DNA of 38,157 nt from Defluviitaleaceae bacterium (GTDB lineage: Bacteria; Bacillota; Clostridia; Lachnospirales; WRAA01). The stretch spans positions 1 to 38,157 of the forward strand of contig WRAA01000001.1 in assembly GCA_009780445.1 (NCBI GenBank), given 5' to 3'. Every line of letters begins with the position of its first letter. The first letter of the stretch is position 1. The notes beneath the pieces were generated by a model. The model was not told where the DNA came from. It did not search any database and saw only the letters and a program-made list of their open reading frames with translations. Made by a program: the position numbers and the translations under genes. This document shows positions 7,232-24,802 of this stretch, in pieces.

Positions 7232-7399
7232 TAGGGCGTGTTTGAAAACCCGCTTCCGGCGGATTTTCAAGTGATTTTTTCGCTAGACTAGGAAGTGGCA
7301 AACGCCGCGAACCCTTGTGGTTCGCAAGTTTGACACTGACGACGTATGGCGGAAAAAGTACCGAAAATACGCCGGAATGGGGTTTTCAAACACGCCCTA
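7232..7399. repeat. ~168-bp extended imperfect palindrome (long hairpin / MITE-like element)
   Basis: The perfect 20-nt arms TAGGGCGTGTTTGAAAACCC (7232-7251) and GGGTTTTCAAACACGCCCTA (7380-7399) are reverse complements. Pairing continues inward (TTCCGGCGgATTTTC with GAAAATaCGCCGGAA; TTTTTCGC with GCGGAAAAA). An inner hairpin GCGAACC-cttgt-GGTTCGC is present. The right arm ends on the TAG stop of the TPR gene. Confidence 0.7.
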
Positions 7400-8548
7400 G
7401 AAGCCTTCGCGGAAATCGGCCTTGAAGCCGTTTAGGATGCCGCCGAGGGTGGTTTGGTAGTCCCTGGTCTTGCCGAGGGCTTTCTTGATCTTGGCGGATT
7501 CGAAGAGGCTGCGTTCGTTCTCCGGGTCGATGGCCAGGGCTTTCTTGATGGCGTTCTCGGCCTTGGTGAGGTCGTAGTCCTGCCTGTGATAGGCGGCCAG
7601 GCGTGTCCACAGCTCTGCGTCTGCGCGGTTGTGCAGGATGGCTTGCTCGATAGACTTGATAGCCGCGGGGATGTTGTGCGTGAGGCGGTGGATGTCCGCG
7701 CGTATGATGTGGAAGGTGCGATCCTTGACTACTACAGAGTTAAGGGCTTCGGCGGCCTTGTCGTAGCTGCGCAGGCGTATATAGACCTGTGCCAGGCTGT
7801 AGACGTAGTGCGGGTCGTACCGGGTGGCCAGGGCTTTCTTGAAGTAGTCTATCGAGTGGCGCGTGTCGCCGGTTTCAAGGTTTAGCAGGCCGTGCATGTA
7901 GTTGATGTCGGGGTTGTTCGGCTCCAGCTCAGCCGCGGCGATCACGGCGCGAAGGCCCTGCTCCAGATTGCGGGCGCGGATGTGGCTTTCGGCCAGACCC
8001 AGCCGCAGACGGATGTCCGAAGGTTCGAGAGACACCGCGCGTTCCAGCATCTCCGCGGCCTCTTCAAAGCGGTAGAGCCGCATGAGGGACATTGCGTAGT
8101 TGTTCAGCAGCCGGTAGTCCTCACTATAGGCCAGGGCGCGTTTGTAGAGACCGGCGGCCTTGGCCGGGCTGCCTTGGCGGTAGAGATAGTCGGCGTTTTC
8201 CTTCAGCCTCTCCCACATCAGCCGGGCTTCCCACTGCGTGAGGGACGCGCGGAGCGACGAAAGCTGGACTTCGTCGTAGAACTCGAACAGGGACAGGAAG
8301 CCGATGAGCCGCGCGCTGAGCGTGTTCTTGTCGTGAAGCTGTGTAAGCTGCGTCGCGTAGTAGGGCAGGCGCAGGGTGTCGCGCGTCCAGTCGATAAACT
8401 CGCGGCTTAAAAATTCCTCCCCCGATTCGCGCCAGTACTTGAACACATGAAAAGCCGCCTCTTCAAGCGAGTAGACGTTGATGTCGGTCATTTTGAACTT
8501 GTAGGGCACCTTGGTTTCTTCGCTTGAAAGGGCGGGGTAGAGCTGCAC
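7397..8548 (-). CDS. tetratricopeptide-repeat (TPR) protein, last gene of the Hsp70 cluster
   Basis: 383 aa with a GTG start preceded by GGAGG (6-nt spacing). From about residue 120 there are repeated 34-aa A/Y/L-patterned units (e.g. AAGLYKRALAYSEDY, EEAAEMLERAVSLEPSD, GLRAVIAAAELEPNNPD, YFKKALATRYDPHY, NAIKKALAIDPENE). The N-terminal ~110 aa are not recognisable. Confidence 0.8.
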   Translation of the reverse strand: MQLYPALSSEETKVPYKFKMTDINVYSLEEAAFHVFKYWRESGEEFLSREFIDWTRDTLRLPYYATQLTQLHDKNTLSARLIGFLSLFEFYDEVQLSSLRASLTQWEARLMWERLKENADYLYRQGSPAKAAGLYKRALAYSEDYRLLNNYAMSLMRLYRFEEAAEMLERAVSLEPSDIRLRLGLAESHIRARNLEQGLRAVIAAAELEPNNPDINYMHGLLNLETGDTRHSIDYFKKALATRYDPHYVYSLAQVYIRLRSYDKAAEALNSVVVKDRTFHIIRADIHRLTHNIPAAIKSIEQAILHNRADAELWTRLAAYHRQDYDLTKAENAIKKALAIDPENERSLFESAKIKKALGKTRDYQTTLGGILNGFKADFREGF

Positions 8549-8560
8549 GTGGAACCTCCG

Positions 8561-10642
8561 TTATAGGCGTATAAGCTCGGTGATGCTCATTGCTATGTTG
8601 TCGAGAATGTCGAAGAACTTGTCGTTCAGGTCGTAGTACTTGCCGTTGGGCTTGGTCACGGGGTCATAGGCCTCGATGCTCTCGCGATCCTTGCGCGCAA
8701 CGATGAATGTTACCACGCCGTTTGAGTTCAGCATGGTGCATATGTTGGACACGCTCTTGCCGGACTTTGTGGGAACGTGGGGCGGTGCGTCGGTGATAAG
8801 GATGAATATGTTCTTGGAGCCGGGTTCGATCACGGAGGAGTTTAGAAGCTCGATGCCCGTCTCCAGCGCATCCAGTGAGGACTCGGGGATGTCGCCGCCG
8901 TATGTCCGGGGGATGTTCTTCACCTGTTTCTGGAACTTGGCGATGTCGTTGGTGAAGTTGTATACCGAAGGTTTCTCCTTCTCGTACAGATCGCCGAAGC
9001 CGATCAGCCCCAGGCGGAACGACGCGCCCTTACTGCTGATGATGTTGCTGAACTCGATTGCGCGATCCTTCACGCCTGTGATGTATGTGTCCATCGAACC
9101 CGTGGTGTCGATGAGGAACACGACGTTCACCTTGTCGGAAGTGAGGGCTGCGCGGGCTTCGCGCGTGGGCGGCGCAGATGCCTTGCTTCTGTCGAACTCT
9201 GCGCGCTGGGTGCGGCCGCTCTCCACGTCCTTGATGAACACTTCGAAGATGTTGTTTTCGTCGATGGCGTAGGTGAGTTCGAGCCGGGTCGCGCCGGACA
9301 GGCCGGAGAAGCCCACCGTGCCGATATAGCGTTTGTCGGCCTCGTGCCCCTGCGCCCACTGGAATACGTCAACATTCACGGCGGACGCGCCGGACATTGT
9401 GGCGAAGTTGCTGTCCGACACGCTGCAGGGTATCGCGCTTCCCATGGGGATGATGGGGATAAGCTCGCGGCGCATTGTGGCCACGTCCACCACGGCCTCG
9501 GTGCCGACTATCTGGCGCGTAACCTGGCCGACCTTCACGCCGCGCCCCGGCAGGTGTATCAGGTAGTTGTAGATGGCCGCGCCCATGGCCACGGACTTCG
9601 CCGGGTCTGTCGCGCGGTACGGCTCCTTCACAAAGCCCGCCACCATGCGGCGCACCATGGGTATCAGCGTGGAGCCGCCCACCAGGATCACCTTGGATAT
9701 CTCGTCGGCCGCCTTGCCCGAACGCTTGAGGGCTTCTTCGATAATGTCGCGGCTGCGGTCTACATACTTGCGTATCAGAGCCTCGAACTCTTCGCGGGTG
9801 ATCTCGGTTTGCAGGTTCTTGGGCACGCCGTCCTGCACAAGCAGGGGGTGTATGCGTATGGGAGCCTTGTTCGCGCCGGAAAGCTTCTTCTTGGCGGATT
9901 CGGCCTCCTGCTTCAGCTTCTGGATCACGCGCTTGCGCTCGGCCTCCTCCAGAGTGTCCACGTCGATGCCCGTGGCCTCGGTGAACTTCGCCTTCATGAA
10001 GCGGATCAGCTCCAGGTCGAAGTCGTCGCCGCCAAGGTTCATGTCGCCCACGTCTGAAAGCTCCTGGAAAACTTCCTGCCCCAGCTCATCCTGCGAGACA
10101 TCCAGCACACAGGCGTCGAAGGTGCCGCCGCCCATGTCGTAGACAAGCAGGGTCTGCGCGTAACCCTGTTTGAAGCCGTATTCAATGGCCGCGGCCAGAG
10201 GTTCGCTCAGCAGGTACACATCCTTGAAGCCGGCCAGCAGCCCCGCCTGTTTTGTGGCGAATATCTGCCGGTCGTTGAAGTAGGCCGGGTGGGTGATTAC
10301 AACTTCGTTAAAGGTTTCGCCGGACTGCTCCTCCGCCGCTGTCTTGAGCCTGCGCAGGATCTGCGCGCTTACGTCCTCCGGCAGTTTTTCGTGGTCGCCG
10401 AAGTTCAGCTTCTCGCCGCTGCCCATCATACGCTTCACGGACAGGATGGTCTTGTCCGGGTAGATTATCGCGCCGGACTTGGCCTCTTCGCCCACAATTA
10501 TGCCTTCGTCGAGATAGCTGACAACCGACGGCAGGATCTCGTAGCTGCCGTCCAGCTTTACGATGTCGGTCTCGTCGTTTTTGTCGTTGTATATTACCGC
10601 CACGGAATTTGTGGTTCCAAGGTCTATTCCTAAGTAGCCCAT
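8561..10642 (-). CDS. Hsp70-family ATPase (NBD + SBD-beta) with a C-terminal von Willebrand factor A domain in place of the lid
   Basis: 693 aa with AGGAGG 7 nt upstream of the ATG. The actin-fold motifs are intact: GIDLGTTNSV, ITHPAYFNDRQIFATKQAGLLAG, VYDMGGGTFD, ILVGGSTLIPMV. An SBD-beta-like block (GLSGATRLELTYAIDENNIFEVFIKD) is followed by a vWA domain with the MIDAS-type residues VVFLIDTTGSM...GGDIPES...ILITDAPPH (about 8564-9136). Confidence 0.85.
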   Translation of the reverse strand: MGYLGIDLGTTNSVAVIYNDKNDETDIVKLDGSYEILPSVVSYLDEGIIVGEEAKSGAIIYPDKTILSVKRMMGSGEKLNFGDHEKLPEDVSAQILRRLKTAAEEQSGETFNEVVITHPAYFNDRQIFATKQAGLLAGFKDVYLLSEPLAAAIEYGFKQGYAQTLLVYDMGGGTFDACVLDVSQDELGQEVFQELSDVGDMNLGGDDFDLELIRFMKAKFTEATGIDVDTLEEAERKRVIQKLKQEAESAKKKLSGANKAPIRIHPLLVQDGVPKNLQTEITREEFEALIRKYVDRSRDIIEEALKRSGKAADEISKVILVGGSTLIPMVRRMVAGFVKEPYRATDPAKSVAMGAAIYNYLIHLPGRGVKVGQVTRQIVGTEAVVDVATMRRELIPIIPMGSAIPCSVSDSNFATMSGASAVNVDVFQWAQGHEADKRYIGTVGFSGLSGATRLELTYAIDENNIFEVFIKDVESGRTQRAEFDRSKASAPPTREARAALTSDKVNVVFLIDTTGSMDTYITGVKDRAIEFSNIISSKGASFRLGLIGFGDLYEKEKPSVYNFTNDIAKFQKQVKNIPRTYGGDIPESSLDALETGIELLNSSVIEPGSKNIFILITDAPPHVPTKSGKSVSNICTMLNSNGVVTFIVARKDRESIEAYDPVTKPNGKYYDLNDKFFDILDNIAMSITELIRL

Positions 10643-10659
10643 GGGGTTGCCTCCTTGTG

Positions 10660-12282
10660 TTATAACTCAACCTTGGCGAAGCGGCTCGGGTCGAAGTCCT
10701 CTTTGAAGCCGCTTGGCTCATACTCGCCGCTAAAGCCAAGATCCTCCACAGAACCCTTTATCAGGCCGCCCTCTTCCTGCGCCATCAAGGTGATTTTCAG
10801 CTTGGTCTTGCCGCTTGGGCGGACCGGCAGGCCGGAGATGGACACTTCGCCGATCAGCTTGCAGTCCTCGATAGGGTCCTCCCTGTTGATGCGTTCGAGA
10901 ATCTTCAGGCCGAAGGTTGTCATGTCCTCGGGCGTGTCGCCTTGCAGGGTGAATGTGTGGCTCTTCTTGGCCAGGGCGTAGGACGTGCCGCGGCGCACCA
11001 TGTTGAAGAAGGTTTTTTTGCCGCCGCTAACCACTTCCAGCCCGATATCGTGCGGCGCGGTGACTTCAAACTCCACCTGCGGCCGCTCCGATTCAATGTC
11101 AGGGCTGCCCAGCAGACCCAACTTCATGGCGGCGTAGTAGGTCGCGCCGATGGAGATGTCCAGCGCGGGTTTCTCGGAGGTGTAGATCTTGTCCTCGCTG
11201 CCGAAGATGTCAGTCAGCATTTCCTTGACCCACGGCATCTGCGACGAACCGCCCTCCAGCAGTACGCGGTCTACGCGGTCCGCGCTTACCGGGCCTATGT
11301 AGCATTCGCGCAGAGCCTTCTGCACAAGCTTGCGTGTCTTGTCGATGAAGTTCTTGTTCAGCTCTTCGAATTGGTCGCGGGTCATCTGCTCCACAAACGG
11401 CGGGATGCAGAACGTGAAGGGTATGCGGAAGTTCTTCACGCCGGAGAGCCTCTCCTTTACTTCCCGCGCGCGGGCGTTCAGCTCGGCCTGGTTTTCGGGT
11501 GCGAGTTCGGCAGAGCCTGTTTTTTCGCGTATCAGCTCGTAACACCGCTCGAGGATGGCTTCGTCCACATTATCGCCGCCGTGATAGGCCTCGCCGCCTT
11601 CGGAGATCACCCGGAGCTTGATGCGTGTCTCGTCCTTTTCGGCCACGTGGAAGAGGGTGATGTCAAGCGTGCCCCCGCCGAAGTCGAACACCAGTATCTT
11701 CTCGCCGATGGCCAGCACGTGGCGGAAGTTGTAGGCCAGAGCCGCGGCCTTTGGCTCTTCGATAAGGCAGATCAGCTTATCTTCCAGCCCGGCCAGGGCG
11801 GCGGCGCGCATGGTGGCCTTTTTCGCGCTGTCGTCAAAGTCGTATGGCACGGAGAGGCATAGCCCGGCGATCTCGGCCTTAGGGTTGAGGGAATGGCAGT
11901 GATCCGCCAGTTCGCGCAGGATCTTGGCGGAGATTTCCTCCGGCAGATAGTCCTTGCCGCCCAGGCTTATCTTCTCGTTGGTGCCCATTTTGCGCTTTAC
12001 GGAGCGGATGGTGGTCTCGGGGTAGATCTTCATGGAGCGGTAGGCCTCTTCGCCCACGACCCATTCGGGAGGGCGATCCTCGTCGTCCTTGCGGTACTGC
12101 ACCACAGACGGCAGGGGGATCTTGCCGAAGCCGTTGCTGATGTCGATAGGTTCGGGGCGGCCGGTATTGCCGTCCCAGTAGCTTATCACCGAATTGGTGG
12201 TGCCAAGATCCACGCCGATCACATACCAGTTTTCGTCAAGACCGCCGGCCTGTATCTGTGCCTTGTAGCTTTCCCAGTTCAA
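10660..12282 (-). CDS. Hsp70-family ATPase, lidless paralogue
   Basis: 540 aa with a TTG start preceded by AAGGAGGTG. Motifs seen: GVDLGTTNSV, SVPYDFDDSAKKATMRAAALAG, VFDFGGGTLD, LLEGGSSQMPWV. The protein ends just after the SBD-beta block (ISGLPVRPSGKTKLKITL), so it has no alpha-helical lid. Confidence 0.85.
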   Translation of the reverse strand: MNWESYKAQIQAGGLDENWYVIGVDLGTTNSVISYWDGNTGRPEPIDISNGFGKIPLPSVVQYRKDDEDRPPEWVVGEEAYRSMKIYPETTIRSVKRKMGTNEKISLGGKDYLPEEISAKILRELADHCHSLNPKAEIAGLCLSVPYDFDDSAKKATMRAAALAGLEDKLICLIEEPKAAALAYNFRHVLAIGEKILVFDFGGGTLDITLFHVAEKDETRIKLRVISEGGEAYHGGDNVDEAILERCYELIREKTGSAELAPENQAELNARAREVKERLSGVKNFRIPFTFCIPPFVEQMTRDQFEELNKNFIDKTRKLVQKALRECYIGPVSADRVDRVLLEGGSSQMPWVKEMLTDIFGSEDKIYTSEKPALDISIGATYYAAMKLGLLGSPDIESERPQVEFEVTAPHDIGLEVVSGGKKTFFNMVRRGTSYALAKKSHTFTLQGDTPEDMTTFGLKILERINREDPIEDCKLIGEVSISGLPVRPSGKTKLKITLMAQEEGGLIKGSVEDLGFSGEYEPSGFKEDFDPSRFAKVEL

Positions 12283-12316
12283 ACGTTATGCACCTCCTTG
12301 GATGTTGAACAGGCTC

Positions 12317-13927
12317 TTATATGAAGAAGCTCTTGTCGGCGGCGATGTCCGTCTTGGGGAACATTTCGCCGAAGCCCAAGTCTCTTACGCGGCATGTTAC
12401 GCAGTTGAAGTTTTTGAAGGATATGTCGACGCACAGGCGTGTCGCGCCGCGTGGGCGTTCGGGCAGGCCGCGCAGGGTGACTTCTTCCGCGAAGGTGATG
12501 TCGCCGCGTTGGTCCCGCCGGAAGAACCTTATGCCGGGAGGTTCGGCGGCGATAGCGTCGCCCAGTATGAAGTGGACGGGCGGGCGTTTCTGCCACCAGA
12601 AGGAGCTTTGCTCCACGATAGGCACGAAGCGTTCGCGCCGGCCGGAGGTGATCATGATGCCGATGTCCACGTTCACGCGGTTCAGGTCGGTGATCGTAAG
12701 CTCCAGCTTGGGCAGGAGGCAGAGGGAGCGTGCGGCGGAAACAGCCGCGCCTTCCGACACGCAGGACTTTGAGTTCTTGCGAAAGTGCAGGCTGCCCTCC
12801 GGGAAGATGCCGCGCAGAACATCCCGCGCCCACATCATCTCGAAGCCGCCGCCGTAGGCCAGCACCGTGCCGATGTCCGACGCTTGCAGGCTGCCGCCGT
12901 CGTGGGTGTTGTTCTTGAGAAGCTTCGCGATAAAGTCCTTCATGCGAAGCTCGATATCGCCGATGAGTGAGGCGACCTCGCCTTCGCTGACGCTGCGCGA
13001 AAACGCGGGGTAGGCGAAGTTGAAGTAGAGCCGCGCCGGCTTGGCCTTGATGCTCTTTTGGAACAGGATGTCGCGGTGCTGGAATGTGAACGCGTCCAGA
13101 TGCGCCTGTACGGCGGGTGTTATCTTGTCGGCCTCCGGCGCGAAGTTGTCGCGGTAGAACAGGCCGAACAGATCCGACACAAGGCTGTTGACCACATTGG
13201 TGCTGACATTACCCTCGAACAGGGAGGACGTGGAGCGCAGATGTACGCTGTCCTGCGCCATTGAGGTGATGTCGAACACCGTGCCGCGAAGCTCGCGCGA
13301 ACCAAGATCCAGCAGCAGCACACGCCCGGCAAGAGGCGCGGACGTTTTGCGCCCCCTGCCCGCGGCAAGGCTGCTGCCGTGGAAGTATCCGTGCAGCACG
13401 CACTCGCGGTCGGTCACAAGGCCGATCAGCTCCTTCTCCAGCCCCGCCTTGTTGAAGGCCAGCAGGAACTCGGACCTTGCGTCGTCGCTGAGATAGCCGG
13501 GGATGGCCGCGGCCACGCCCACGATCTCGGCGCGCGGGTTGATGCTGTAGATGTGCGACACAAGCTCCTTGATGAACATTCCCAGAAGCGTCACAACAGA
13601 CACGGAACGCCCGTCCACATCCACATATTCATGCTTGCCGAGCCGCTCCACAAGCCCGGTCACAAGCACGTTGCCCAACGCGTTGTCGCCAAGTACGGCA
13701 TATTCGCCGTAGACCCACTCGCGTGTCTCCGCGATATACTGCATCGCCGTCGGCACGGAGGGCTTGCCGTATCCGCCGGAGATGTCCACGACCTCCGCCT
13801 GGCCGGAGCCTGCGTTAAACAACGACAAACTCGAAGAATCGTTGCCGATATCTATGCCCAGCACAAACTGCGCCTCTTCAAGAGACGCGCCCGCGCTTAC
13901 TAGGTTGTGGAACTTTTTCCAATACAT
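12317..13927 (-). CDS. divergent Hsp70-like protein with degenerate nucleotide-binding motifs
   Basis: The track ORF runs to 14014. I prefer the ATG at 13927 (MYWKKF...), preceded by AAGAGG at 6-nt spacing. The Hsp70 architecture is recognisable but the motifs are altered: GIDIGNDSSS (vs DLGTTNS), LLDLGSRELRGTVFD (vs DxGGGTFD) and LAYGGGFEMMW (vs LVGGSTRIP). The SBD-beta-like end reads LRGLPERPRGATRLCVDISF. Confidence 0.75.
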   Translation of the reverse strand: MYWKKFHNLVSAGASLEEAQFVLGIDIGNDSSSLSLFNAGSGQAEVVDISGGYGKPSVPTAMQYIAETREWVYGEYAVLGDNALGNVLVTGLVERLGKHEYVDVDGRSVSVVTLLGMFIKELVSHIYSINPRAEIVGVAAAIPGYLSDDARSEFLLAFNKAGLEKELIGLVTDRECVLHGYFHGSSLAAGRGRKTSAPLAGRVLLLDLGSRELRGTVFDITSMAQDSVHLRSTSSLFEGNVSTNVVNSLVSDLFGLFYRDNFAPEADKITPAVQAHLDAFTFQHRDILFQKSIKAKPARLYFNFAYPAFSRSVSEGEVASLIGDIELRMKDFIAKLLKNNTHDGGSLQASDIGTVLAYGGGFEMMWARDVLRGIFPEGSLHFRKNSKSCVSEGAAVSAARSLCLLPKLELTITDLNRVNVDIGIMITSGRRERFVPIVEQSSFWWQKRPPVHFILGDAIAAEPPGIRFFRRDQRGDITFAEEVTLRGLPERPRGATRLCVDISFKNFNCVTCRVRDLGFGEMFPKTDIAADKSFFI

Positions 13928-13949
13928 AACATGCCTCTTACTTAAGGTG

Positions 13950-14089
13950 AGTTCGATGAACAAAAACCATTCATCGAACTTTGACTGCATCCGCACAATT
14001 TGCGGAAAGATCACCGCAAATTCTGCGGATAACCTGAAAAATGCTTCGCATTTTCAGCCGCTCACGCGGCCGGTTCGACTTCGTCGAAC
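13950..14089. repeat. array of six short hairpins in the only long intra-operon spacer
   Basis: Plus-strand stems: AGTTCGATGAA/TTCATCGAACT (13950-13980); CCGCA/TGCGG twice (13991-14005 and 14014-14028); CTGAAAAATGC/GCATTTTCAG (14034-14057); GCCGC-tcac-GCGGC (14057-14070); GTTCGAC-ttc-GTCGAAC (14073-14089). Confidence 0.6.
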
Positions 14090-14094
14090 TCAGA

Positions 14095-15936: not shown

Positions 15937-15944
15937 ATCTCACC

Positions 15945-17636
15945 TTAGCTATACAGTTCGTCTACTGCAAGTTCTGTTACCGCGCCGCCGTCTCCGGTGG
16001 ATTTTGCCGTAACGTGCAGCATGTTGTCCTGCCCCACGCTGAAGATTACTTTCACCTTCTCCAGGCCTTTCGGGCGTTGGGGTATGCCGCGCAGGCTGGT
16101 GCCGGCCAGGCGTTTCATGCCCTCCATGTGTACGAGCGGGGTTGTGTCGCCCTTGGCCTTGCCGGATTGCGGCAGGGTGTTTTCGTACACCACGATGGCC
16201 ATGCTGCTTACGTTGTCGAAGTTGGTGGTCAGCAGTTCCGCCGCCTCGACAACAAGCCCGCCCGCGGGGATGTCCACGCCGCCGCCCACAATCTCCATAA
16301 ACCTGCGCCCGGCGATCTCAAGCCCCAGCGGGTGTACCGTGCGTTCCTGCATAACAGGCCCCTTTACGGTGGGCATCATGATCATGTTGCAGTAGTGTGC
16401 CGCGCCCTGGGATATTGACAGCGCGGGGCTTATGCGCGAACGAAACGGCTCCTTGCCGAACTTCTCGGTGATCTTCTCGCCCACTTGCAGGAGGGAGGAG
16501 CTTCCGCCGACAAGGAACACTTCGTCGATATCCGCGGGGGCAAGCTCCGCGGCTTCCAAACATCTGTCCACGCATTCCATCGTGACTTGCAGGAGGTCCT
16601 CGAGATTTTTGTCGCGGAATTTTTCGTAGTACTCCTGTGGGTCGCCCAGCGGGTTTACGCGCCTGTGCGCCACGAAGTCCTCGCGGGAGATCTCCATGTT
16701 GATGTTGATGATGCGCGGTTCTTGTATGAAGGGCGCAAGCACGACCTTGGTGGTCTTGGCCTGCGACAGGCGTTCCTTGGCTTGTGTTGCGGCCTGCATC
16801 AGGCGCACGATGGCCACCTTCTTCTGACGTTTTGATACGCCGTCGTCGGCGTGTTCGTCAAAGAGGTCGATTTCGTCGCCGGCCAGCTTCTTAAACTCTT
16901 CGTAGATCATGTCCATGATGATCTTGTCGATATCGTTGCCGCCCAGCCGGTTGTCGCCGTAGGTGCTGAGGATGGATATTGTCGGCTCGCCGGCTTCTCC
17001 TGATTTGATCTCCAGTATACACGCGTCGAAGGTTCCGCCGCCGAAGTCGTAGACCAGCACCTTTTTGTCGGCGGATTCGTTCACGGCATAGCTGATTGCG
17101 GCGGCGGCCGGCTCCAGCCGCAGGAACACGCTGTTCTCCTCGAAGCCGGCCTTCATGGCGGCCAGCTTGGTCATCTTTTTCTGCTTGTCGGTGGAGTTGG
17201 CCGGCACGGTGATAACACAGCCGGAGAACTCGCCCGCGATGTTCAGCTCTTCCTGCACATATTCGTCGGCCTTGGCCTTGAGGTATGCGATGATCTCGCC
17301 GGCCACTTCCTCCGGGCTGAAGGTGTACTCGCGCTCGTCCACCGTCACACGGATGCTCTCTTCGTTGGCCAGCCTGCGCTTCACCGACAGCACGGTGGAG
17401 AGGGGGTAGATGACGGCGGCCTCCTTGGCTTGCACGCCGAACACGCGCGACAGCTTTGTGTCGTCGTCCGGGTCGCTCTCGAACTGTATGGCGGTGGGGA
17501 AGATGTTGCCTCCGTCGATAGGGATCGTGACGGCTTCGCCCTCCGCGAAGTTGTACAGCGACACCACCGAGTTAGTGGTGCCGAAGTCGATGCCCAGGAA
17601 CAGGCCGCGTTCCATGTCAAGTCCAAGTGTTCCCAT
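15945..17636 (-). CDS. Hsp70-family ATPase, lidless paralogue
   Basis: 563 aa with AGGAGG 6 nt upstream of the ATG. Motifs seen: GIDFGTTNSV, ITVPANSTDKQKKMTKLAAMKAG, VYDFGGGTFD, FLVGGSSSLLQV. The protein ends at the SBD-beta block (LRGIPQRPKGLEKVKVIFSVGQDNMLHVTAKSTG). Confidence 0.85.
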   Translation of the reverse strand: MGTLGLDMERGLFLGIDFGTTNSVVSLYNFAEGEAVTIPIDGGNIFPTAIQFESDPDDDTKLSRVFGVQAKEAAVIYPLSTVLSVKRRLANEESIRVTVDEREYTFSPEEVAGEIIAYLKAKADEYVQEELNIAGEFSGCVITVPANSTDKQKKMTKLAAMKAGFEENSVFLRLEPAAAAISYAVNESADKKVLVYDFGGGTFDACILEIKSGEAGEPTISILSTYGDNRLGGNDIDKIIMDMIYEEFKKLAGDEIDLFDEHADDGVSKRQKKVAIVRLMQAATQAKERLSQAKTTKVVLAPFIQEPRIININMEISREDFVAHRRVNPLGDPQEYYEKFRDKNLEDLLQVTMECVDRCLEAAELAPADIDEVFLVGGSSSLLQVGEKITEKFGKEPFRSRISPALSISQGAAHYCNMIMMPTVKGPVMQERTVHPLGLEIAGRRFMEIVGGGVDIPAGGLVVEAAELLTTNFDNVSSMAIVVYENTLPQSGKAKGDTTPLVHMEGMKRLAGTSLRGIPQRPKGLEKVKVIFSVGQDNMLHVTAKSTGDGGAVTELAVDELYS

Positions 17637-17657
17637 TGTGTTCCTCCTTCGTAAGAT

Positions 17658-20543
17658 TTATAACAGCTGGCTCTTTATCATGCAATAGTCGCGCAGGTAG
17701 TCCGCCACCAGTTCCTCCACCTTGTCGTAGCGGAACATCTGCTCGTAGATCAGGGCGTTGTTCAGCATGAAGTAGGGGTCCGGGGAGTGTTCCCGTAGGG
17801 TATTCTCCGTGCAGGCCATGGTGGCGGGCTTGGTGTCCACCGAGCCGGACTTCGATATTTCGGAGAAATAGTATTCGATATTTTCGCCCGAGAACTGCAC
17901 GATGTGGCATGTGTAGATTCCGAAGAACAGGTAGTTCATGGGTGTGCGGGCGAAGTCGGCGTCCTGCGAATATCTGTACGCAAGGTACACGTCCTTGCCC
18001 GGTTGTGTCCTGTATGTGAAGGGTGTGTTCTTTACAAGATACGAACCGAACACACTTTTGTCTTTAACAAGGCGAAACGGCGGCAGAAGCACCCCGCGTG
18101 ACTGCATGGACGCGAAGGCGCGGCGCAGGATATAGTCGGACGACGATGTGGACACGCCGCCCTCGAGATAGGCGTACACAAGGCCGCATCCTAAACGGAT
18201 GTCGCCGTACTTGATAAACTGCCGCTCCATGATGTCGATGACGGCGTGGTCGGGAACTGTGCCGCGCACCATACATTCATAGGTGCCGAACTCCAGGAAG
18301 GGCGCGACAAGGGCGTGGCGGGGGTCGTTGGCATAGAGCCGCGTGAATACGCGCTGTGCGCCCGCGCTGAACGTGTGGGTGAACAGGCTGTCGGAGATGA
18401 TCTTTTCGTCCACGCGGATGTCGTCCGCGCCAAGCTGGTGCAGGGCGGCGGAGAGCGCGTGCCATTCCTCCTGCGTTCCGCGGTAGTATTGTATCACAAC
18501 TTCCAGAAAAGCTTTGTCGAACCATGACTTTAGAATCATTTCATAGGCCACGTTGGTGATGATCGGCACCAGGGCCTGTTTGTCGGGGCTTTGGGGTGCT
18601 ACGTTGGCCACGGTGAGGATGCGCACCAGAGCCTTGAAGATGGTGCGTTCCTTGATGCAGTGGGGCTTTGTCGAAATGAGGCGTGCGGCGGGTTCGAGCC
18701 GCGCCGCTTCCATGTAGACCTCCAGCATCTTCTCGACGTGCTTGTCGCTGATGTACTTGCCGTCGATCTTGGCGAAGTTGTCCAGTGCGGCGGAATGATT
18801 GTCCAGTGCGGCGCAGATGCCGCCCAGAGCCGCCGTGGCGCGGGTGGTAAAGGATTCGGAAACCGTGGTAAGTGCCAGGCTCTTGCCCAGTATCTCCACG
18901 CCGAAGGCCAGCCTGTCCGCGTGTTTGGCGGCCTTGCGCACAGACTTGTCCAGCGCGTCCTCCAGAGATATGAAGTAGCGCGAAAGGGCGATCAGCAGGT
19001 TGTCGCTGTGTGCCTCCCTGTTGTAGCAGGCCTTTAGCATGTCGAAGTTTGGGCGCGGCGTAAGCTTGGCCACGCGCACGTCACATTCGCAGATGCGGCG
19101 CATGTCCGCCGTGAAGCACACAAAGGTGAAGTCGGCGTCGGCGGCGTAGACGCGGGCGCGTCCGTCCGCCACGTCATAGGGCTGCTGGACAGACTTTTCG
19201 CGCTCGTTGACCCACACCAGAGCCACGCCGGGGTCGGCGAACTCCAGGTCGTAGGCGAAGAGGCTCGGCCAGAGCTTGGCCGATATCGCGCCGTAGTAGT
19301 ACGCAAGGCTTGCCAAAGCCTTGTTGCCGCTTAGAACGCAGTCGGTCAGGCTGATGTTGTTGCGCTGTTCAAACTCGATGCAATATTCCGCGAAACGTTT
19401 GTAGCTGCTGTTGACGTAACGGGCGGAACTGCTGTCGTGCAGCTTGTTGTCGCAGGCATAACAAGCGAACTCCAGTATGCCGTCGTGGTACGCGGGGGCG
19501 AGATCCGCCAGCTTCTTGGTGGTCAGCAGCTTGTGGTATACGTAGGCGGCCAGCCGTGCGTCCTCCGGGTCGTCCAGCGAGAGGGTGTTGGCGTCCAGAA
19601 ACTGTTTCAGCGAATGGCGCGATATTTCGTCCAGCCGGTTGCGGTAGGCGGAGCGCACCACGGCGTTTGCAAGGCCGGGCAGATCCAGCTGCCTGTTCTC
19701 GGCCAAACGGTAGTACTTGCAGGCGTTGCGGCTGTAGTCGCCGGTTTCCAGCAAGCGGGTGACAAGCTTGGCAAGCAGCCATTCGCCGTCACACACGGAC
19801 AGCAGAGCGTCGTAACACGTGTAGGACACTCTGCCGGCGAAGCCCAGGTTGGGCGCGTAGAAGTCGAGCATGGGGCCGATGTCCAGCCCGCGGGTTACGC
19901 ACCAGAGGAATGTGTCTACCAAGAAGGTGTGGCTGCCTTCGATGGCCGGCTTGCTGCCCAGCAGCTTGTATGTGTGGGCGTAGAGGTACGCGCCTGTGTA
20001 GCCGCGCTCGCGGGAGTTACGCAGAGCCCGGAAGCTGTCGGCGTGCCGCCCCGCCGCGGCAAGAGCCGCGCCCAGCACGCACATAACAAATCCGCCGCGC
20101 TCAAGATCCCCGCGGGACAGGCGTTCCGTCACAAAGTCCTCCAGAGTGCTAACGGCCTTGGCGAAGTCCGCGTCGTTTCCGGCGCGGCGGGCGAGTTCGG
20201 CCTGGAAGTACCACAGGAGGGCATAGGCGGCGTGGTCGTTGTTCTTGTAGAAGTTGCGGTATGTTCGGAGCTGGCGCAGATGGTCGCCGGCGGTTTCGTT
20301 GTTGCCAAGCTCTATGTTTACGAAGATGAGCGCGAGAAGAAGCTCGATGCTGCCGGGTTTGCGCGCGAAGGACGTCACCGCGGCGTGGTTGGCTTCGTGC
20401 AGAAGCTCCCGCCTGCCGGTCACAAAGAAGCATTGCCACAACAAGCCCACGGCCGCCGTGATGTCGGTGACGGAGCTTTCCGGGCGGCTCAGTACGGCGC
20501 GGCATTTGTTCAGTTTTGCGTGTAGGCGTGCTTCGTGGCTCAC
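17658..20543 (-). CDS. 961-aa protein of unknown function (mostly alpha-helical by composition; cytoplasmic)
   Basis: Long uninterrupted ORF with normal codon and amino-acid composition. The GTG start overlaps the upstream stop (GTGA at 20540-20543) and is preceded by AGGAG. There is no signal peptide, TM segment or catalytic motif I can recognise. Confidence 0.7.
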   Translation of the reverse strand: MSHEARLHAKLNKCRAVLSRPESSVTDITAAVGLLWQCFFVTGRRELLHEANHAAVTSFARKPGSIELLLALIFVNIELGNNETAGDHLRQLRTYRNFYKNNDHAAYALLWYFQAELARRAGNDADFAKAVSTLEDFVTERLSRGDLERGGFVMCVLGAALAAAGRHADSFRALRNSRERGYTGAYLYAHTYKLLGSKPAIEGSHTFLVDTFLWCVTRGLDIGPMLDFYAPNLGFAGRVSYTCYDALLSVCDGEWLLAKLVTRLLETGDYSRNACKYYRLAENRQLDLPGLANAVVRSAYRNRLDEISRHSLKQFLDANTLSLDDPEDARLAAYVYHKLLTTKKLADLAPAYHDGILEFACYACDNKLHDSSSARYVNSSYKRFAEYCIEFEQRNNISLTDCVLSGNKALASLAYYYGAISAKLWPSLFAYDLEFADPGVALVWVNEREKSVQQPYDVADGRARVYAADADFTFVCFTADMRRICECDVRVAKLTPRPNFDMLKACYNREAHSDNLLIALSRYFISLEDALDKSVRKAAKHADRLAFGVEILGKSLALTTVSESFTTRATAALGGICAALDNHSAALDNFAKIDGKYISDKHVEKMLEVYMEAARLEPAARLISTKPHCIKERTIFKALVRILTVANVAPQSPDKQALVPIITNVAYEMILKSWFDKAFLEVVIQYYRGTQEEWHALSAALHQLGADDIRVDEKIISDSLFTHTFSAGAQRVFTRLYANDPRHALVAPFLEFGTYECMVRGTVPDHAVIDIMERQFIKYGDIRLGCGLVYAYLEGGVSTSSSDYILRRAFASMQSRGVLLPPFRLVKDKSVFGSYLVKNTPFTYRTQPGKDVYLAYRYSQDADFARTPMNYLFFGIYTCHIVQFSGENIEYYFSEISKSGSVDTKPATMACTENTLREHSPDPYFMLNNALIYEQMFRYDKVEELVADYLRDYCMIKSQLL

Positions 20544-21736
20544 TCCAAATCTCCTATCGTGACGCTCTGTGTGCGTGTGAAGGTTCGGTCGTCCTGCGAA
20601 ATGTGTACGTACAGCTCCCCCGTGATGGTGGGCTGTTTCTTGATGAGCATTTGCGCTATCTGTAACGGCGAGAGCTTGGCCGTAAAGCCGATCTGCGTTT
20701 CACCGGGCGGGATGTCGCGGCTGTCCTTGTTGTCCGGCCTGATAAAGCTGTCGGAAACGCTAAGTTCCAGCCTTGCGGGGCGGCCGCTTAAATTGCGCAC
20801 GACCAGCACGCCGCGGCTGCCCGTCTTGAAGTAGGCGTTGTTGACGTGGCAGGAGAAGTCCGCGCCGGCCTTCACCTTTACGCCGATCTCGATGCTGCCG
20901 ATGGTTAAAACGTCGCTGACGCGGCTTGTGCGGATCTTGGCCGGGTTGATGGTGTAGGTCAGTGTGGCGGTGTCTCCGCCGTCGAAGTCGTGTTCGGTGA
21001 TGAGATCCTTCTGCGGGACAAGCCAGGCCGAGGCATACTTCACGCGCACCGCGTCCTCGAAACTGCCCCACAGGCCGCGGTGCAGTGTGACGGAACCTTG
21101 CAGAGGGTCGCGCGCGTGGAGGATAACCTCATGTTCGCGGGAGGTTTCGCCGCGCACGCTCAGTGTCACGGGGTTCTTGAGCTTGTGCAGCACAAGGAAG
21201 GCCTCCAGGGACAGGCGCGGCGACGGCGCCTTGCGCAGGCTCCTGTAAATGTCGGGGTAGGCCGTGCCGTGTTCCTCCAGCCAGTTGGCAAACTCCTCCG
21301 ACACGAATACGGCCGCGGCCTGCGCGGGCTGTTTGCGGGCATATGCCGCGAAGTCTTTCAGCCCGGTAAGCTTTGCGCCGTCCGGCTCCAGAGTCCGCGC
21401 GACAATCTTGACCACGGCGGGGATCTGCATTTCGCCGCCGTTGGTGCGCAGCAGTATGCCTGTGTGGATGATTTCGCCGGCGCGGTACTTGCCGGGCGGC
21501 ACGCTGTAGCCCAGACGGAAGCTGTTGGCGCAGAAGCTCCCGCTTTCCAGCGTTAGCACAGGCCCCGACGGCACGGCTGTGCCCTCCAGTGTCTGCCCGC
21601 CGGTATTCTTGAGGGTGATCGCGCCGGAGGTGCCGGCGGCGGTGGTCTCGATAACCAGCTTGCCGCTGTGCAGCCTGTCGCCGCCAAGCACCAGCTTTGG
21701 CAGAGGATACTCAAGATGATGTGTGTTAATGTTCAT
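20540..21736 (-). CDS. 398-aa protein of unknown function (beta-rich by composition, possibly Ig-like sandwich repeats)
   Basis: The ORF overlaps the upstream gene by 11 nt, with GGGGG 7 nt before the ATG. Alternating polar/hydrophobic beta-strand-like patterning is seen (e.g. GKLVIETTAAGTSGAITLKNTGG, GELYVHISQDDRTFTRTQSVTIG). No signal peptide. Confidence 0.65.
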   Translation of the reverse strand: MNINTHHLEYPLPKLVLGGDRLHSGKLVIETTAAGTSGAITLKNTGGQTLEGTAVPSGPVLTLESGSFCANSFRLGYSVPPGKYRAGEIIHTGILLRTNGGEMQIPAVVKIVARTLEPDGAKLTGLKDFAAYARKQPAQAAAVFVSEEFANWLEEHGTAYPDIYRSLRKAPSPRLSLEAFLVLHKLKNPVTLSVRGETSREHEVILHARDPLQGSVTLHRGLWGSFEDAVRVKYASAWLVPQKDLITEHDFDGGDTATLTYTINPAKIRTSRVSDVLTIGSIEIGVKVKAGADFSCHVNNAYFKTGSRGVLVVRNLSGRPARLELSVSDSFIRPDNKDSRDIPPGETQIGFTAKLSPLQIAQMLIKKQPTITGELYVHISQDDRTFTRTQSVTIGDLE

Positions 21737-22946
21737 GCCGATGCCCCCGCAACTCGTCCAGACGTATGTCGATCTGCTCCTTCACCGCGGCTATGGCGCG
21801 GACTTCGTTGCGCCCCTGCTCGTCCAGCCTGTCGGCGATGTTGCGCAGGGTCTGCGCAAGGTCTTGGTTCGTGCGTGTCATGTTGCTTACGCTGTCCTCC
21901 AGGCCGGATGTTAGGTTGTTCAGAGAGCGCGACACGTGGTGATCCAGCATTGTGCCGAAACCTTCGCCCAGCTTGCGGGTCAGATCCTCCAGCACGGATT
22001 CATAGTTCTTCACGGCCTTGTCGGGCGAGTGGCGTTCAAGCTCTGTCAGCATGTTGGCCAGTGTGCCGGCTACGTCGGAAAATTGGGTTATGGCGTGGAG
22101 CAGCCTCTCGTTGGACTGGTTCGCCCCGTGCTGGAGCTGTGCGGCGCGTGATATCTGGTCGTTCCAGCGGCTCATGGGTTCTTTCAGCAAGGTGTCTACG
22201 TCGGCCAGCTTGATGAGGGTGTGTTCGATACTGCGCGACATATCGCCGAGGCTCTTGCTTACGGCGGCCGAAACGGTTTCGCCGGACATACGGGATGCGG
22301 CGGAGAACGCGTCGGACTGTGCCTTGATGGCCTCTTGCAGGGTGCCGCGCAGGATGGTGAGGTTGGCCGTGATGTCCGGCGTGAAGAACTTGGCGGCTTC
22401 GCGCGTGACATAGGACGCGGCTTCGTGGTGCAGCTGTTCCCGCGCGAGGCGCACGTCAAACACTGCGCTAAGCAGGCGAAGCGCCAGCCACAGCGCGGCC
22501 GCGCTAAGCCCGAAGGCTATGCGGGCTTCGTCGAACACAAGGGCAAGAAGCAGCCCCGCCGGCACGATCGAACGCTCGAAGCCTTCCGCAAAGCGCAGCA
22601 CGCCGGAGAAGCTCCAGCCGAACGCGCCCAAGCGGCCTATGTGCATGTCTGCGATATCGCGGACGTTGGCCGTAGTTATGCCGCTTTCGCACAGGCCGAT
22701 GTACTCCCGCGCCACGCTTGTGAGTATGCCGGCGCGGCCGTCCTTCAGCTCGTGCAGGGTCTTGGCCGCGCTTCGCGAATTCTTCCACACAAGGCCGCGC
22801 TGGCCTTGGTATACAAGGTAGAGCGATATGCGCAGCACGGCGGTGACGGCGGCGACGCCCAGCAGGGCGATGTACGCCGCAAAGGCGTTGCCGGAGTGGT
22901 TTATGGCGTTAAAGAACTGTAGCAGCTCGTAGAAGTATTGTGGCAT
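21726..22946 (-). CDS. membrane protein with about 3 TM segments and a ~230-aa C-terminal coiled-coil/helical tail, first gene of the cluster
   Basis: 406 aa. Hydrophobic segments are AFAAYIALLGVAAVTAVLRISLYLV, SIVPAGLLLALVF and AFGLSAAALWLALRLLSAVF. A long Ser/Leu/Glu/Arg-rich helical region follows. The ATG overlaps the glyQS stop (TAATG at 22944-22948). Confidence 0.7.
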   Translation of the reverse strand: MPQYFYELLQFFNAINHSGNAFAAYIALLGVAAVTAVLRISLYLVYQGQRGLVWKNSRSAAKTLHELKDGRAGILTSVAREYIGLCESGITTANVRDIADMHIGRLGAFGWSFSGVLRFAEGFERSIVPAGLLLALVFDEARIAFGLSAAALWLALRLLSAVFDVRLAREQLHHEAASYVTREAAKFFTPDITANLTILRGTLQEAIKAQSDAFSAASRMSGETVSAAVSKSLGDMSRSIEHTLIKLADVDTLLKEPMSRWNDQISRAAQLQHGANQSNERLLHAITQFSDVAGTLANMLTELERHSPDKAVKNYESVLEDLTRKLGEGFGTMLDHHVSRSLNNLTSGLEDSVSNMTRTNQDLAQTLRNIADRLDEQGRNEVRAIAAVKEQIDIRLDELRGHRHEH

Positions 22947-24349: not shown

Positions 24350-24389
24350 GCGATATCTCCTTCGATTACGTAATTCTTCCATTATCTTT

Positions 24390-24417
24390 ATGATACAGCA
24401 TTTTGAGCATTTGTCAA
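24390..24417 (-). promoter_or_regulatory. candidate sigma-A promoter for glyQS
   Basis: The minus strand reads TTGACA (24417-24412), a 16-nt spacer, then TATCAT (24395-24390). This leaves a leader of only ~35 nt. Confidence 0.4.
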
Positions 24418-24500
24418 GGTTTTGACTTCGACACGCGCGACACACGGCAATTTGGCCGGAGGAATAGTTTGTAAGTTCAGAAGATTATCTTTTAAAGGTA

Positions 24501-24529
24501 TTGCAAAACAGTTGTATCCGGTGTATAAT
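24501..24529 (+). promoter_or_regulatory. strong sigma-A-type promoter driving a non-coding transcript
   Basis: TTGCAA (24501-24506), a 17-nt spacer, then TGtATAAT with a perfect TATAAT at 24524-24529. No ORF or RBS follows it. Confidence 0.55.
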
Positions 24530-24535
24530 ATGGGT

Positions 24536-24672: not shown

Positions 24673-24746
24673 TTCTTATATGCCAAGTACATCAAAGTTA
24701 CTGACGTAACAGTAAGAAGCAAGTACAACACTTCAAACATGGTCAT
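24660..24746 (-). CDS. 28-aa hydrophobic peptide MTMFEVLYLLLTVTSVTLMYLAYKNTKK (candidate type I toxin / small membrane protein)
   Basis: Not in the ORF track because it is too short. The ATG at 24746 is preceded by AAAGGAGG (24755-24762) at 8-nt spacing. It has a single TM-length hydrophobic core and a basic KNTKK tail. The TAA stop sits inside the terminator stem. Confidence 0.5.
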   Translation of the reverse strand: MTMFEVLYLLLTVTSVTLMYLAYKNTKK

Positions 24747-24802
24747 AGGCCATTCCTCCTTTCGGAAGTCCGGCCACACAAGCCCCGCAATCTGCTTGCG
24801 CA

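Follow-up and report, generated by a model that had tools for sequence, protein, structure and literature searches.

A Lachnospirales operon of four lidless Hsp70 paralogues, a GrpE-type fusion and DUF5717: a candidate J-protein-independent chaperone machine

The prevailing rule is that an Hsp70 needs a J protein to function and normally also a lid. In yeast, the ribosome-associated complex (RAC) triad comprises Ssz1, a pseudo-Hsp70 with a truncated substrate-binding domain (SBD), the J protein Zuo1 and the active Hsp70 Ssb, together with nucleotide exchange factors (NEFs), and depends on the ribosome. Here we analyse a 38,157-nt stretch (the window) of a metagenome-assembled genome (MAG) of Defluviitaleaceae, order Lachnospirales, in which nine genes (g1 to g9 in order of transcription) encode four Hsp70 paralogues, a GrpE-domain fusion, two parts of the family DUF5717, a TPR protein and a membrane protein. 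A deeply conserved J-less operon with four lidless paralogues, among them a pseudo-Hsp70 and an Hsp70-vWA fusion, and with a private exchange factor would challenge this rule and provide a convenient system in which to study Hsp70s that act without J proteins on dedicated partners.

Several described bacterial systems share parts with this locus. The GAP1-N2 GTPase-centric conflict systems include an 'HSP70 + GrpE' theme in Firmicutes, in which Hsp70 and GrpE are linked to a beta-sandwich (FNIII)-repeat protein fused to TPR or DnaJ, with vWA in related themes (Kaur, Burroughs, Iyer, Aravind 2020; PMC7159879). MoxR-vWA(-TPR) modules are represented by the Bat operon and by ternary systems described in the same 2020 paper, and the CoCoNuT protein CnuD combines a degenerate Hsp70-like nucleotide-binding domain (NBD) and SBD with HEAT-like repeats (Bell et al. 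2024; PMC11090510). DUF5716 and DUF5717, to which three proteins of the locus belong, are catalogued already and uncharacterised; in the searchable literature we found no paper describing the operon or either family, and no publication linking the two families to each other or to Hsp70, GrpE or vWA. No named system was matched in PADLOC, PHROGs or that literature, in agreement with the sequence-only reading that preceded this study.

Our reading of the locus, to which we assign a probability of roughly 0.5, is that of a vertically inherited Lachnospirales machine in which several Hsp70s serve a dedicated purpose without a J protein; that it constitutes a real functional module is nearly certain. 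Its nine genes form sub-modules, namely a five-gene Hsp70 core (g4–g8), DUF5717, the TPR protein and the membrane protein, with the following features.

21726–22946, minus strand: g1, membrane protein with three predicted transmembrane segments (residues 19–46 and 127–165, hydropathy) and a long C-terminal coiled-coil/helical region
20540–21736, minus strand: g2, N-terminal DUF5717 part, with beta-sandwich domains and a helical linker (Pfam DUF5717_N, E = 6e-34, 117.4 bits, profile positions 37–276)
17658–20543, minus strand: g3, C-terminal DUF5717 part (DUF5717_N positions 324–634 plus DUF5717, 129 and 34.8 bits)
17661–17678, minus strand: DUF5717 C-terminal tail, IKSQLL-COOH here, motif [IV][RK][GAS]x[LI][LM]-COOH among ~100 family representatives
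15945–17636, minus strand: g4, Hsp70 paralogue 1 (Pfam HSP70, E = 5e-65), NBD and SBD-beta, no lid
14095–15936, minus strand: g5, GrpE-domain fusion of 613 residues; GrpE domain at residues 530–613 (nt 14098–14349; Pfam GrpE, E = 9e-13)
12317–13927, minus strand: g6, degenerate Hsp70 of Pfam DUF5716 (DUF5716_C, E = 1e-19), NBD degenerate, SBD-beta-like C-terminal domain retained
10660–12282, minus strand: g7, Hsp70 paralogue 3 (Pfam HSP70, E = 7e-58, plus a weak DUF5716_C match), NBD and SBD-beta, no lid
9179–10642, minus strand: g8, Hsp70 part, residues 1–488 (Pfam HSP70, E = 1e-90), NBD and SBD-beta
8564–9127, minus strand: g8, vWA domain, residues ~506–693 (Pfam VWA_4, VWA and VWA_2), fused at the expected place of the lid
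7397–8548, minus strand: g9, TPR adaptor (Pfam TPR_2 and related), a family-specific N-domain of ~120 residues followed by TPR repeats

An open reading frame (ORF) check reproduced the layout of nine packed same-strand ORFs proposed earlier. Between 7397 and 22946 the genes are consecutive and closely spaced, with overlaps of 11 nt (g1/g2) and 4 nt (g2/g3), gaps of 21, 8, 34, 17 and 12 nt at the remaining junctions and, with the g6 start taken at 13927, a 167-nt spacer that separates g5 from g6. A Shine-Dalgarno sequence had been assigned to every gene; this was obvious for g3–g9, and the sites of g1 and g2 are weak. Related loci are referred to below by L numbers.

The four Hsp70-like ORFs are true Hsp70s, as first proposed, and not MreB/FtsA relatives or sugar kinases: HSP70 profiles scored far ahead of MreB, which matched g4, g7 and g8 at E-values of 1e-8 to 1e-18. 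This comparison bears on the idea of an actin-fold filament system, in which a TPR/coiled-coil membrane scaffold would carry polymers of Hsp70-like ATPases, by analogy with MamK/MamA or ParM-like systems. The Hsp70 NBD has the actin fold and gives weak MreB/MamK/BeeR profile matches, and the operon encodes both a TPR protein and a membrane coiled-coil protein; however, HSP70 beats MreB by 40–70 orders of magnitude in E-value, and SBD-beta and GrpE belong to a chaperone cycle rather than to filaments, so that such a system is very improbable. No paralogue reached the threshold of a canonical DnaK model, the best scores against TIGR02350 and NF001413 being 201–338 bits (cut-offs 648–822); HscA models gave 108–280 bits (cut-offs 620–743) and PRK11678 36–79 bits (cut-off 331). 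The most DnaK-like of the four is g8, which HMMER aligned to residues 5–471 of Geobacillus DnaK (E = 1e-76). For DUF5716 (PF18980, gathering threshold 34.7 bits), g6 scored above threshold at 71 bits and g7 below it at 26.2 bits.

All four proteins end at about DnaK position 500–507 in an alignment to E. coli DnaK (g8 was also aligned to Geobacillus DnaK) and therefore lack the alpha-helical lid, which bears out the earlier observation that they stop after SBD-beta. In g4, g7 and g8, the residues equivalent to DnaK D8, T11–T13, K70, E171, D194, G196–198, T199 and D201 are invariant or nearly so (42, 35 and 29 orthologues, respectively), and these three proteins are predicted to be ATPase-competent. 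By the same comparison g6 appears to be a conserved pseudo-ATPase, a catalytically dead Hsp70, because in all 60 orthologues K70 is replaced by a hydrophobic residue, E171 by V/I/M, T199 by E/Q/G, D201 by R and T11/T12 by N/D/E. None of the paralogues keeps DnaK positions R167 and N170, which contact the J domain in DnaK, or the VLLLD interdomain linker; each has conserved motifs of its own in their place, and the SBD-beta pocket positions stay hydrophobic while being fixed differently in each paralogue.

Further paralogue-specific features are equally constant. Across 29 orthologues of g8 the vWA motifs LIDTTGSMD, YGGDIPES and ILITDAPPH are invariant, and the metal ion-dependent adhesion site (MIDAS) of this domain is predicted to be intact. 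The sequence-only reading had seen no EEVD-like tail on any of the Hsp70s; this fails for g4, which carries a conserved acidic C-terminus, ...ELSVD[ED]LY(x)-COOH, in 42/42 orthologues (the window copy ends ...AVDELYS). In g7, a conserved FDP[SD]RF motif lies close to the C-terminus. A neighbour-joining tree resolved g4, g6, g7 and g8 as four separate orthologous groups, with g6 and the shorter DUF5716 proteins of reduced modules (described below) in one clade that is sister to g7. Each paralogue thus appears to be an ancient, separately conserved orthologous group and not a recent duplicate.

The exchange factor departs from its canonical counterpart in another way. In g5, only positions 83–164 of the 165-position GrpE profile are matched, at 48.7 bits against a Pfam cut-off of 25.8, and the protein falls far below the cut-offs of all NCBIfam GrpE equivalogs; it is predicted to supply a GrpE-type exchange domain. 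Its C-terminal ~240 residues are kept even in the 263-residue version of L011. Searches of residues 1–529 found neither DnaJ nor any other family at E ≤ 10, and sequence and profile searches of the PDB with g2 and g5 returned nothing useful. As had been noted, the cluster is without a J domain: the HPD motif is absent from all nine proteins, and the DnaJ Pfam profile gave no match at E ≤ 0.01 in the nine, nor at E ≤ 10 in g1, g2, g5 residues 1–529 and the g9 N-domain, a result that covers the proteins of the locus and leaves room for a J protein elsewhere in the genome. The controlling inverted repeat of chaperone expression (CIRCE), TTAGCACTC-N9-GAGTGCTAA, was searched for throughout the window with a tolerance of three mismatches and gave no match.

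With DnaK-DnaJ-GrpE the module has in common an Hsp70 NBD that retains its catalytic residues, SBD-beta, and a putative GrpE-type exchange domain. It differs in having four paralogues instead of one, all lidless, one of them a pseudo-ATPase and one a vWA fusion; it has no J protein and no CIRCE and has lost the J-contacts and the linker, its GrpE match is confined to the C-terminal domain of the 613-residue g5, and the Hsp70s are linked to a scaffold with TPR and immunoglobulin-like (Ig) elements. The same observations bear on whether the locus might be a second stress-proteostasis DnaK/GrpE set, back-up or condition-specific, which would act on general clients and borrow the housekeeping DnaJ from elsewhere. 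A genuine NBD and SBD-beta, intact catalytic sites, a GrpE domain and a retained hydrophobic SBD pocket are what such a set would have. It is nonetheless improbable, given the loss of the lid from all four paralogues and of the R167/N170 contacts and VLLLD linker, the missing CIRCE, a paralogue that is a conserved pseudo-enzyme, the antiquity of the orthologous groups, and a linkage to DUF5717, TPR and vWA that is obligate in most loci. The proposal of a dedicated Hsp70/NEF machine distinct from general proteostasis gains support from the fixed gene order, the Hsp70 identity and the absence of a J domain and CIRCE from the locus.

The likeness to RAC lies in a dedicated, stable machine that combines a non-hydrolysing Hsp70 of truncated SBD with an active Hsp70 and a NEF, and it is one of analogy without homology. 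RAC needs Zuo1 and the ribosome, whereas the module has no J protein and its only pointer to the ribosome is the repeated presence of aminoacyl-tRNA synthetase neighbours. By analogy, the working mode may be closest to that of scaffold-bound Hsp70 assemblies such as yeast RAC, with a further resemblance to chaperone-vWA-TPR modules.

The putative scaffold is formed by g2 and g3. These had been described as two large unknowns, which proved wrong: they are two halves of one Pfam family, DUF5717 (PF18984 and PF18983, cut-off 25 bits, exceeded by both), that is fused in other lineages as a protein of 1180–1300 residues, to the N-termini of which g2 aligns. The split is kept with an identical 4-nt overlap in L001 and other loci, and NCBI names g3 a 'DUF5717 family protein'. 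An AlphaFold2 model of g3 (predicted local distance difference test, pLDDT, 88.6) shows a TPR-like solenoid (1–427), a beta-sandwich (430–493), a second solenoid (500–838), a second beta-sandwich (839–910) and a disordered tail; in the model of the fused homologue P0072, a beta-sandwich (14–105) and a helical bundle (121–178) are seen. With both models Foldseek retrieved generic TPR scaffolds (Ski3, IFT139, Ctr9 and Naa15; TM-score ≤ 0.2), a profile search of PDB sequences with g3 matched TPR proteins, and no catalytic domain was present in the models. Together, g2 and g3 are predicted to make up a non-enzymatic scaffold of ~1350 residues, with beta-sandwich domains and TPR-like solenoids. The C-terminal tail is disordered in both models (g3 residues 954–961, pLDDT < 50) and reads Q[LIM]FK[PT]L-COOH in the reduced type. 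As for g9, hhalign showed its N-domain and first TPRs to be homologous to the TPR protein of 270–300 residues that the reduced type encodes (probability 99.5%, E = 1.7e-22).

With this composition, the module can be set against the remaining described systems. It shares Hsp70 and GrpE with the GAP1-N2 theme, and the beta-sandwiches and TPR-like solenoid of DUF5717 are likened to its FNIII component by fold description. That theme is, however, defined by a DO-GTPase and GAP1; its Hsp70 occurs singly or as a pair, and DnaJ fusions are frequent. The module lacks the GTPase, GAP1 and a J domain and has four lidless Hsp70s. No GTPase or P-loop Pfam domain was found in the nine proteins or the flanks, and the only GxxxxGK[ST] string of the nine lies within a modelled TPR helix of g3. 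MoxR-vWA modules likewise pair an ATP-driven chaperone-type NTPase with a MIDAS vWA and TPR and are often membrane-associated, but here the NTPase is an actin-fold Hsp70 with a NEF and the vWA is fused to it directly, and there is no MoxR, AAA+ or DUF58 in the cluster. CoCoNuT recalls the DUF5716/DUF5717 pair in combining a degenerate Hsp70 with an alpha-solenoid protein; the module differs in having active Hsp70s and GrpE and in lacking the McrB GTPase, McrC/DUF2357, HEPN and CSD. On these comparisons the module does not appear to be a member of canonical DnaK, HscA/HscC, GAP1-N2, MoxR-vWA or CoCoNuT.

Conservation of the gene order was assessed in a metagenome scan seeded with the GrpE-fusion alignment, which yielded 77 loci whose ORFs were classed by hidden Markov models built here. 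The next core gene was the canonical one at g4>g5 in 54/54 loci, at g5>g6 in 74/77, at g6>g7 in 45/48, at g7>g8 in 30/32 and at g8>g9 in 15/18, and DUF5717 lay upstream of g4 in 22/31 testable loci; most of these loci come from few samples, so that the junction counts are not phylogenetically independent. In the individually inspected L001, L004, L008, L010 and L011 the order was [membrane protein]-DUF5717-Hsp70-GrpE fusion-DUF5716-Hsp70-Hsp70-vWA-TPR, the distant members having 18–26% identity to g3, and the g3 family comprises 582 clusters at 50% identity in a library of 1.8 billion proteins. The neighbourhood survey thus upholds the expectation that the nine families are co-conserved, in a fixed order across very divergent relatives. 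The earlier notion of a nine-gene unit stands in that the order recurs and falls in that the set is not strictly nine: g1 is variable, g4–g8 are most constant and sub-modules exist.

An accidental juxtaposition or a decaying cluster could be argued from the division of DUF5717 into two ORFs and from the odd 167-nt spacer, and from nothing else. The recurrence of the order in dozens of loci rules out accident even with non-independent counts; L001 and other loci share the split along with its 4-nt overlap, and all nine ORFs are intact and appear to be under purifying selection. These comparative data refute the idea, the probability of which is negligible.

Three architectures were distinguished. 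The first is the full module, as in the window. The second is the five-gene core g4–g8 with no DUF5717 or TPR within 7–8 kb (L052, L057, L067, L072, L077 and others), the neighbours of which vary (SLH-CAP wall proteins, MerR/Cass2, C5 methylase, A2M and DUF5724/DUF4132). In L072 and L077, a wall protein with SLH and CAP domains lies upstream of g4, and L077 (1–3390) also carries a large DUF5724-DUF4132-DUF7737 protein; the recurring wall protein may be an alternative partner to DUF5717. The third, reduced architecture occurs in Lachnospiraceae (L003, L012, L013, L014) and consists of a fused DUF5717 of ~1180 residues, a DUF5716 protein of 360–420 residues, a TPR protein of 270–300 residues and a membrane coiled-coil protein of ~400 residues, with no active Hsp70, GrpE or vWA.

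This reduced form is the Pfam archetype (fused 1180-residue DUF5717, DUF5716 of 360–420 residues), of whose families g2, g3 and g6 are true members. It is found in Butyrivibrio, [Clostridium] fimetarium and very abundant gut organisms, and one DUF5717 cluster at 90% identity holds 1430 member sequences. DUF5716 (g6) is the constant partner of DUF5717, which it adjoins in the reduced-type loci L003, L012, L013 and L014. The clade that joins g6 with the reduced-type DUF5716, sister to g7, and the intermediate L062, a full module ending with a reduced-type membrane protein, are most simply explained if the reduced type was derived by loss of the active Hsp70s, GrpE and vWA. Two orphan families, DUF5716 and DUF5717, are thereby tied to one another and to the biology of Hsp70, and hundreds of 'hypothetical' gut-microbiome genes gain a testable context.

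The locus appears to be syntenic core genome, vertically inherited in Lachnospirales. In the relatives L001 and L016 the arrangement GlyRS-g1...g9-CorC-LspA is the same as in the window. The flank proteins are 86.5% (GlyRS), 83% (LspA) and 69% (CorC) identical to these relatives and the module proteins 92.9% (g8, against the L016 orthologue), 88.6% (g4, against L001), 88.1% (g7), 80% (g9), 71% (g6), 71% (g1), 66% (g3), 64% (g2) and 54% (g5, the fastest-evolving member, against L001). The active Hsp70s thus seem as constrained as an aminoacyl-tRNA synthetase (88–93% against 86.5% for GlyRS). GlyRS lies near the module in the window, L001 and L003, and in five loci GlyRS or ValRS is no more than a few genes away. 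Upstream of DUF5717 there is a divergent class-I/II aminotransferase in L004, L008 and L014 and, directly adjacent, MgsA/RarA in L003, L012 and L013; two loci have a PBP5-type carboxypeptidase nearby. Because these core-genome neighbours are shared across distant lineages, they fit vertical descent.

Searches for mobility led to the same picture, with no plasmid and no viral-contig hits. The sole 'phage' match, MT835486.1 (L012, 1–24775), was obtained from human faeces and labelled 'UNVERIFIED: Bacteriophage sp.'; it is a piece of bacterial chromosome, Lachnospiraceae-like in character, that carries MgsA, an NAGPA-domain gene, DUF5717, DUF5716, ValRS (apparently two ORFs) and glycosyltransferases. 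Even GC content, housekeeping flanks and the GlyRS-to-LspA synteny in L001 and L016, together with the lack of plasmid and viral hits, sustain the sequence-only reading that the locus is not a recent island.

This genomic setting is also where an anti-phage or anti-invader conflict system of the NTPase-vWA-TPR type has to be weighed, with the Hsp70/GrpE cycle as threshold switch, the TPR/Ig protein as sensor and variable enzymes or a membrane protein as effectors. Its theme resembles the chaperone-vWA and GAP1-N2 HSP70+GrpE systems (PMC7159879), and the sensor-like components DUF5717 and g5 evolve fastest. Above all, it is the genes inserted in relatives that keep this reading alive. Inserts typical of conflict loci (HEPN, HEPN-GNAT, Uma2, NUDIX, MBL-fold, S41 peptidase, serpin and AAA_25) occur among them, type ISP and C5 methylases adjoin some core-only loci, and there are weak PADLOC matches to the candidate PDC-M61B. 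The matches in PADLOC-DB 2.0 were only weak and partial, to the ZorA coiled coil (5.7e-4), PDC-M61B (8.5e-7, an Hsp70 NBD fragment) and PDC-M71B (TPR), and PHROGs gave nothing meaningful for the module proteins. Against a conflict role stand the syntenic core genome with housekeeping flanks in every lineage examined, the absence of an effector-type domain from the window module and the inspected reduced Lachnospiraceae modules, the lack of a GTPase, MoxR, STAND or nuclease component and of plasmid or viral-contig hits, and active Hsp70s conserved like an aminoacyl-tRNA synthetase; the inserts, moreover, vary from locus to locus and include obvious toxin-antitoxin (TA)-like hitchhikers. We consider such a system unlikely. 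As an alternative that we rank as equally novel, the same core could be an Hsp70-based immune switch with cassette-like effectors, which if true would be the first Hsp70-centred immune module with effectors of this kind.

For the dedicated J-independent machine, a general mechanism can be proposed, the odds of which we put at about even. The module proteins would form one assembly with built-in ligands and would offer no general folding service; ATP hydrolysis and ADP release catalysed by g5 would cycle the complex between states, the vWA-MIDAS site would grip an external target, and g1 would tether the complex to the membrane in the lineage of the window. Exchange at the lidless SBDs would be fast if no partner stands in for the lid in trans, and the loss of the J-contact residues suggests that the scaffold, in place of a J domain, might set off hydrolysis. 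A more specific docking scheme is tentative: the disordered hydrophobic-basic tail of DUF5717 ([IV][RK]xx[LI][LM]-COOH) might sit in the lidless SBD-beta pocket, and the acidic tail of g4 (SVDELY-COOH) might dock to a TPR groove of g9 or DUF5717.

Most likely the module has a housekeeping or cell-biological role, in which it would assemble or remodel one particular structure that may be associated with the envelope; a weak hint in this direction comes from cell-envelope genes that recur among the neighbours (PBP5, NAGPA, MurJ, SLH proteins and LspA). In its boldest form, which we hold to be doubtful, the proposal is a self-contained J-independent hetero-oligomer in which three active Hsp70s and a dead one, all lidless, would be held permanently on a TPR/Ig scaffold through their tails, and in which ATP/GrpE cycling and a vWA-MIDAS grip would assemble, disassemble or gate a membrane structure. 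A scaffold-mounted machine of this kind would be the bacterial equivalent of Hsp70 systems that eukaryotes couple to scaffolds (RAC, clathrin uncoating) and core to Lachnospirales, and the dominant human-gut Lachnospiraceae would keep only a remnant of scaffold and pseudo-Hsp70.

Several observations, in addition to the non-independence of the junction counts, weigh against a dedicated scaffold-mounted machine. In nine of the 31 testable loci the five-gene core has neither DUF5717 nor TPR in its vicinity, which means that the Hsp70 core is able to function, or at any rate to be maintained, where no scaffold is adjacent. The membrane protein g1 is not universal, and hhalign detected no homology between g1 and its counterpart in the reduced type (probability 0.6%). 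Many relatives carry heterogeneous same-strand genes between the core genes, at almost every junction, and some core-only loci lie beside restriction-modification methylases (type ISP, C5), a pattern of inserts more typical of conflict systems.

Loci with inserts include L001, L020, L023, L025, L027, L033, L037–L039, L042, L060, L067, L072, L077 and L081. The inserted genes encode an MBL-fold hydrolase (recurrent at g4>g5), SAM methyltransferases, GNAT, NUDIX, histidine phosphatase, HEPN, HEPN-GNAT and Uma2 proteins, as well as an S41 peptidase (recurrent), serpin, AAA_25, hemerythrin and D-aminopeptidase. In L001, an S41 peptidase and a HicB-like gene lie between g3 and g4, and a methyltransferase-like ORF follows g7. 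Such genes may be hitchhikers, for example TA modules, or variable effectors. The window copy has no inserted genes, only the hairpin-rich spacer at g5>g6, a junction with inserts elsewhere.

No Pfam family was assigned to g1 above cut-off. Its orthologues precede DUF5717 in 13 loci, and it is absent in L008, L010 and L011. The membrane association proposed for the machine accordingly holds for the window through the transmembrane segments of g1, its sole basis, and does not extend to the many relatives in which g1 is absent or replaced. A MotA/ExbB-like stator was considered for g1 on account of a similar transmembrane topology and the weak ZorA match, and was rejected: this match lies in the coiled coil, and no MotA_ExbB Pfam match at E ≤ 10, no conserved polar transmembrane residues and no MotB/ExbD partner were found.

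Three features outside the coding regions of the module concern its transcription.

22946–24349, minus strand: glyQS, glycyl-tRNA synthetase (Pfam tRNA-synt_2b and HGTP_anticodon), upstream neighbour of g1
13928–14094, minus strand: hairpin-rich g5>g6 spacer of 167 nt, lineage-specific; relatives carry inserted genes at the same junction
7233–7398, no strand assigned: inverted-repeat element of 166 nt with ~26-nt inverted repeats (AGGGCGTGTTTGAAAACCC...), directly past the g9 stop

The ATG of g1 overlaps the stop of glyQS by 1 nt (TAATG, window 22944–22948), which points to a possible ten-gene transcription unit; glyQS and g1...g9 may thus form a single transcript. The strongest sigma70-like site on the minus strand, TTGACA-16-TATCAT (24417–24390), lies upstream of glyQS. 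In L001, the distance between glyQS and g1 is ~180 nt, and g1 starts there with TTG behind a good AAGGTGA Shine-Dalgarno sequence. No T-box leader or other Rfam family was detected upstream of glyQS, and the window as a whole gave no Rfam match to a riboswitch, T-box or other known RNA. Sporulation-specific control was considered and is not supported: the upstream regions of several loci have sigma-A-like extended -10 boxes, and the reduced module is present in non-sporulating Butyrivibrio.

The g5>g6 spacer folds into four strong hairpins (minimum free energy -77.7 kcal/mol, z = -7.4). It contains two copies of a 15-nt palindrome, CCGCAAATT[G/C]TGCGG, at 13991–14005 and 14014–14028, 8 nt apart (4 strand-hits observed against 0.66 expected), and the pair looks like an operator. 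The spacer sequence is not conserved in the closest relative L001, whereas the start of g6, ATGTATTGGAAAAAG (ATG-TAT-TGG-AAA-AAG), is kept in this relative of 66% identity, which supports the g6 start at 13927.

The element after g9 yielded 2 inverted-repeat matches against 0 expected, and a similar one lies upstream of DUF5717 in L006, another Defluviitaleaceae MAG, from position 9434. It likely marks the end of the operon, as a large hairpin/terminator or as an element resembling a miniature inverted-repeat transposable element; corC, downstream of it, has its own TATAAT promoter. The housekeeping flanks comprise tpiA, pgk, rluD, lspA and corC on one side and glyQS, pepP, hprK, murB, rapZ and whiA with late flagellar genes on the other, and the GC content of the locus (0.55–0.63) is like that of the flanks, with no discontinuity.

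GC content falls to 0.50 at 24001–25000, in the intergenic region from which glyQS and the gene of an Xaa-Pro aminopeptidase (24904–26703, plus strand) diverge; promoter-like sites occur there on both strands. An ORF of 249 residues at 24733–25482 on the minus strand belongs to no family and is probably spurious. Further along, the late flagellar block (31186–37675, minus strand) contains flgN, two tandem FlgK-like genes (594 and 617 residues), a FlgL-like protein with a flagellin-N domain (502 residues) and fliW; the duplication of flgK is unusual.

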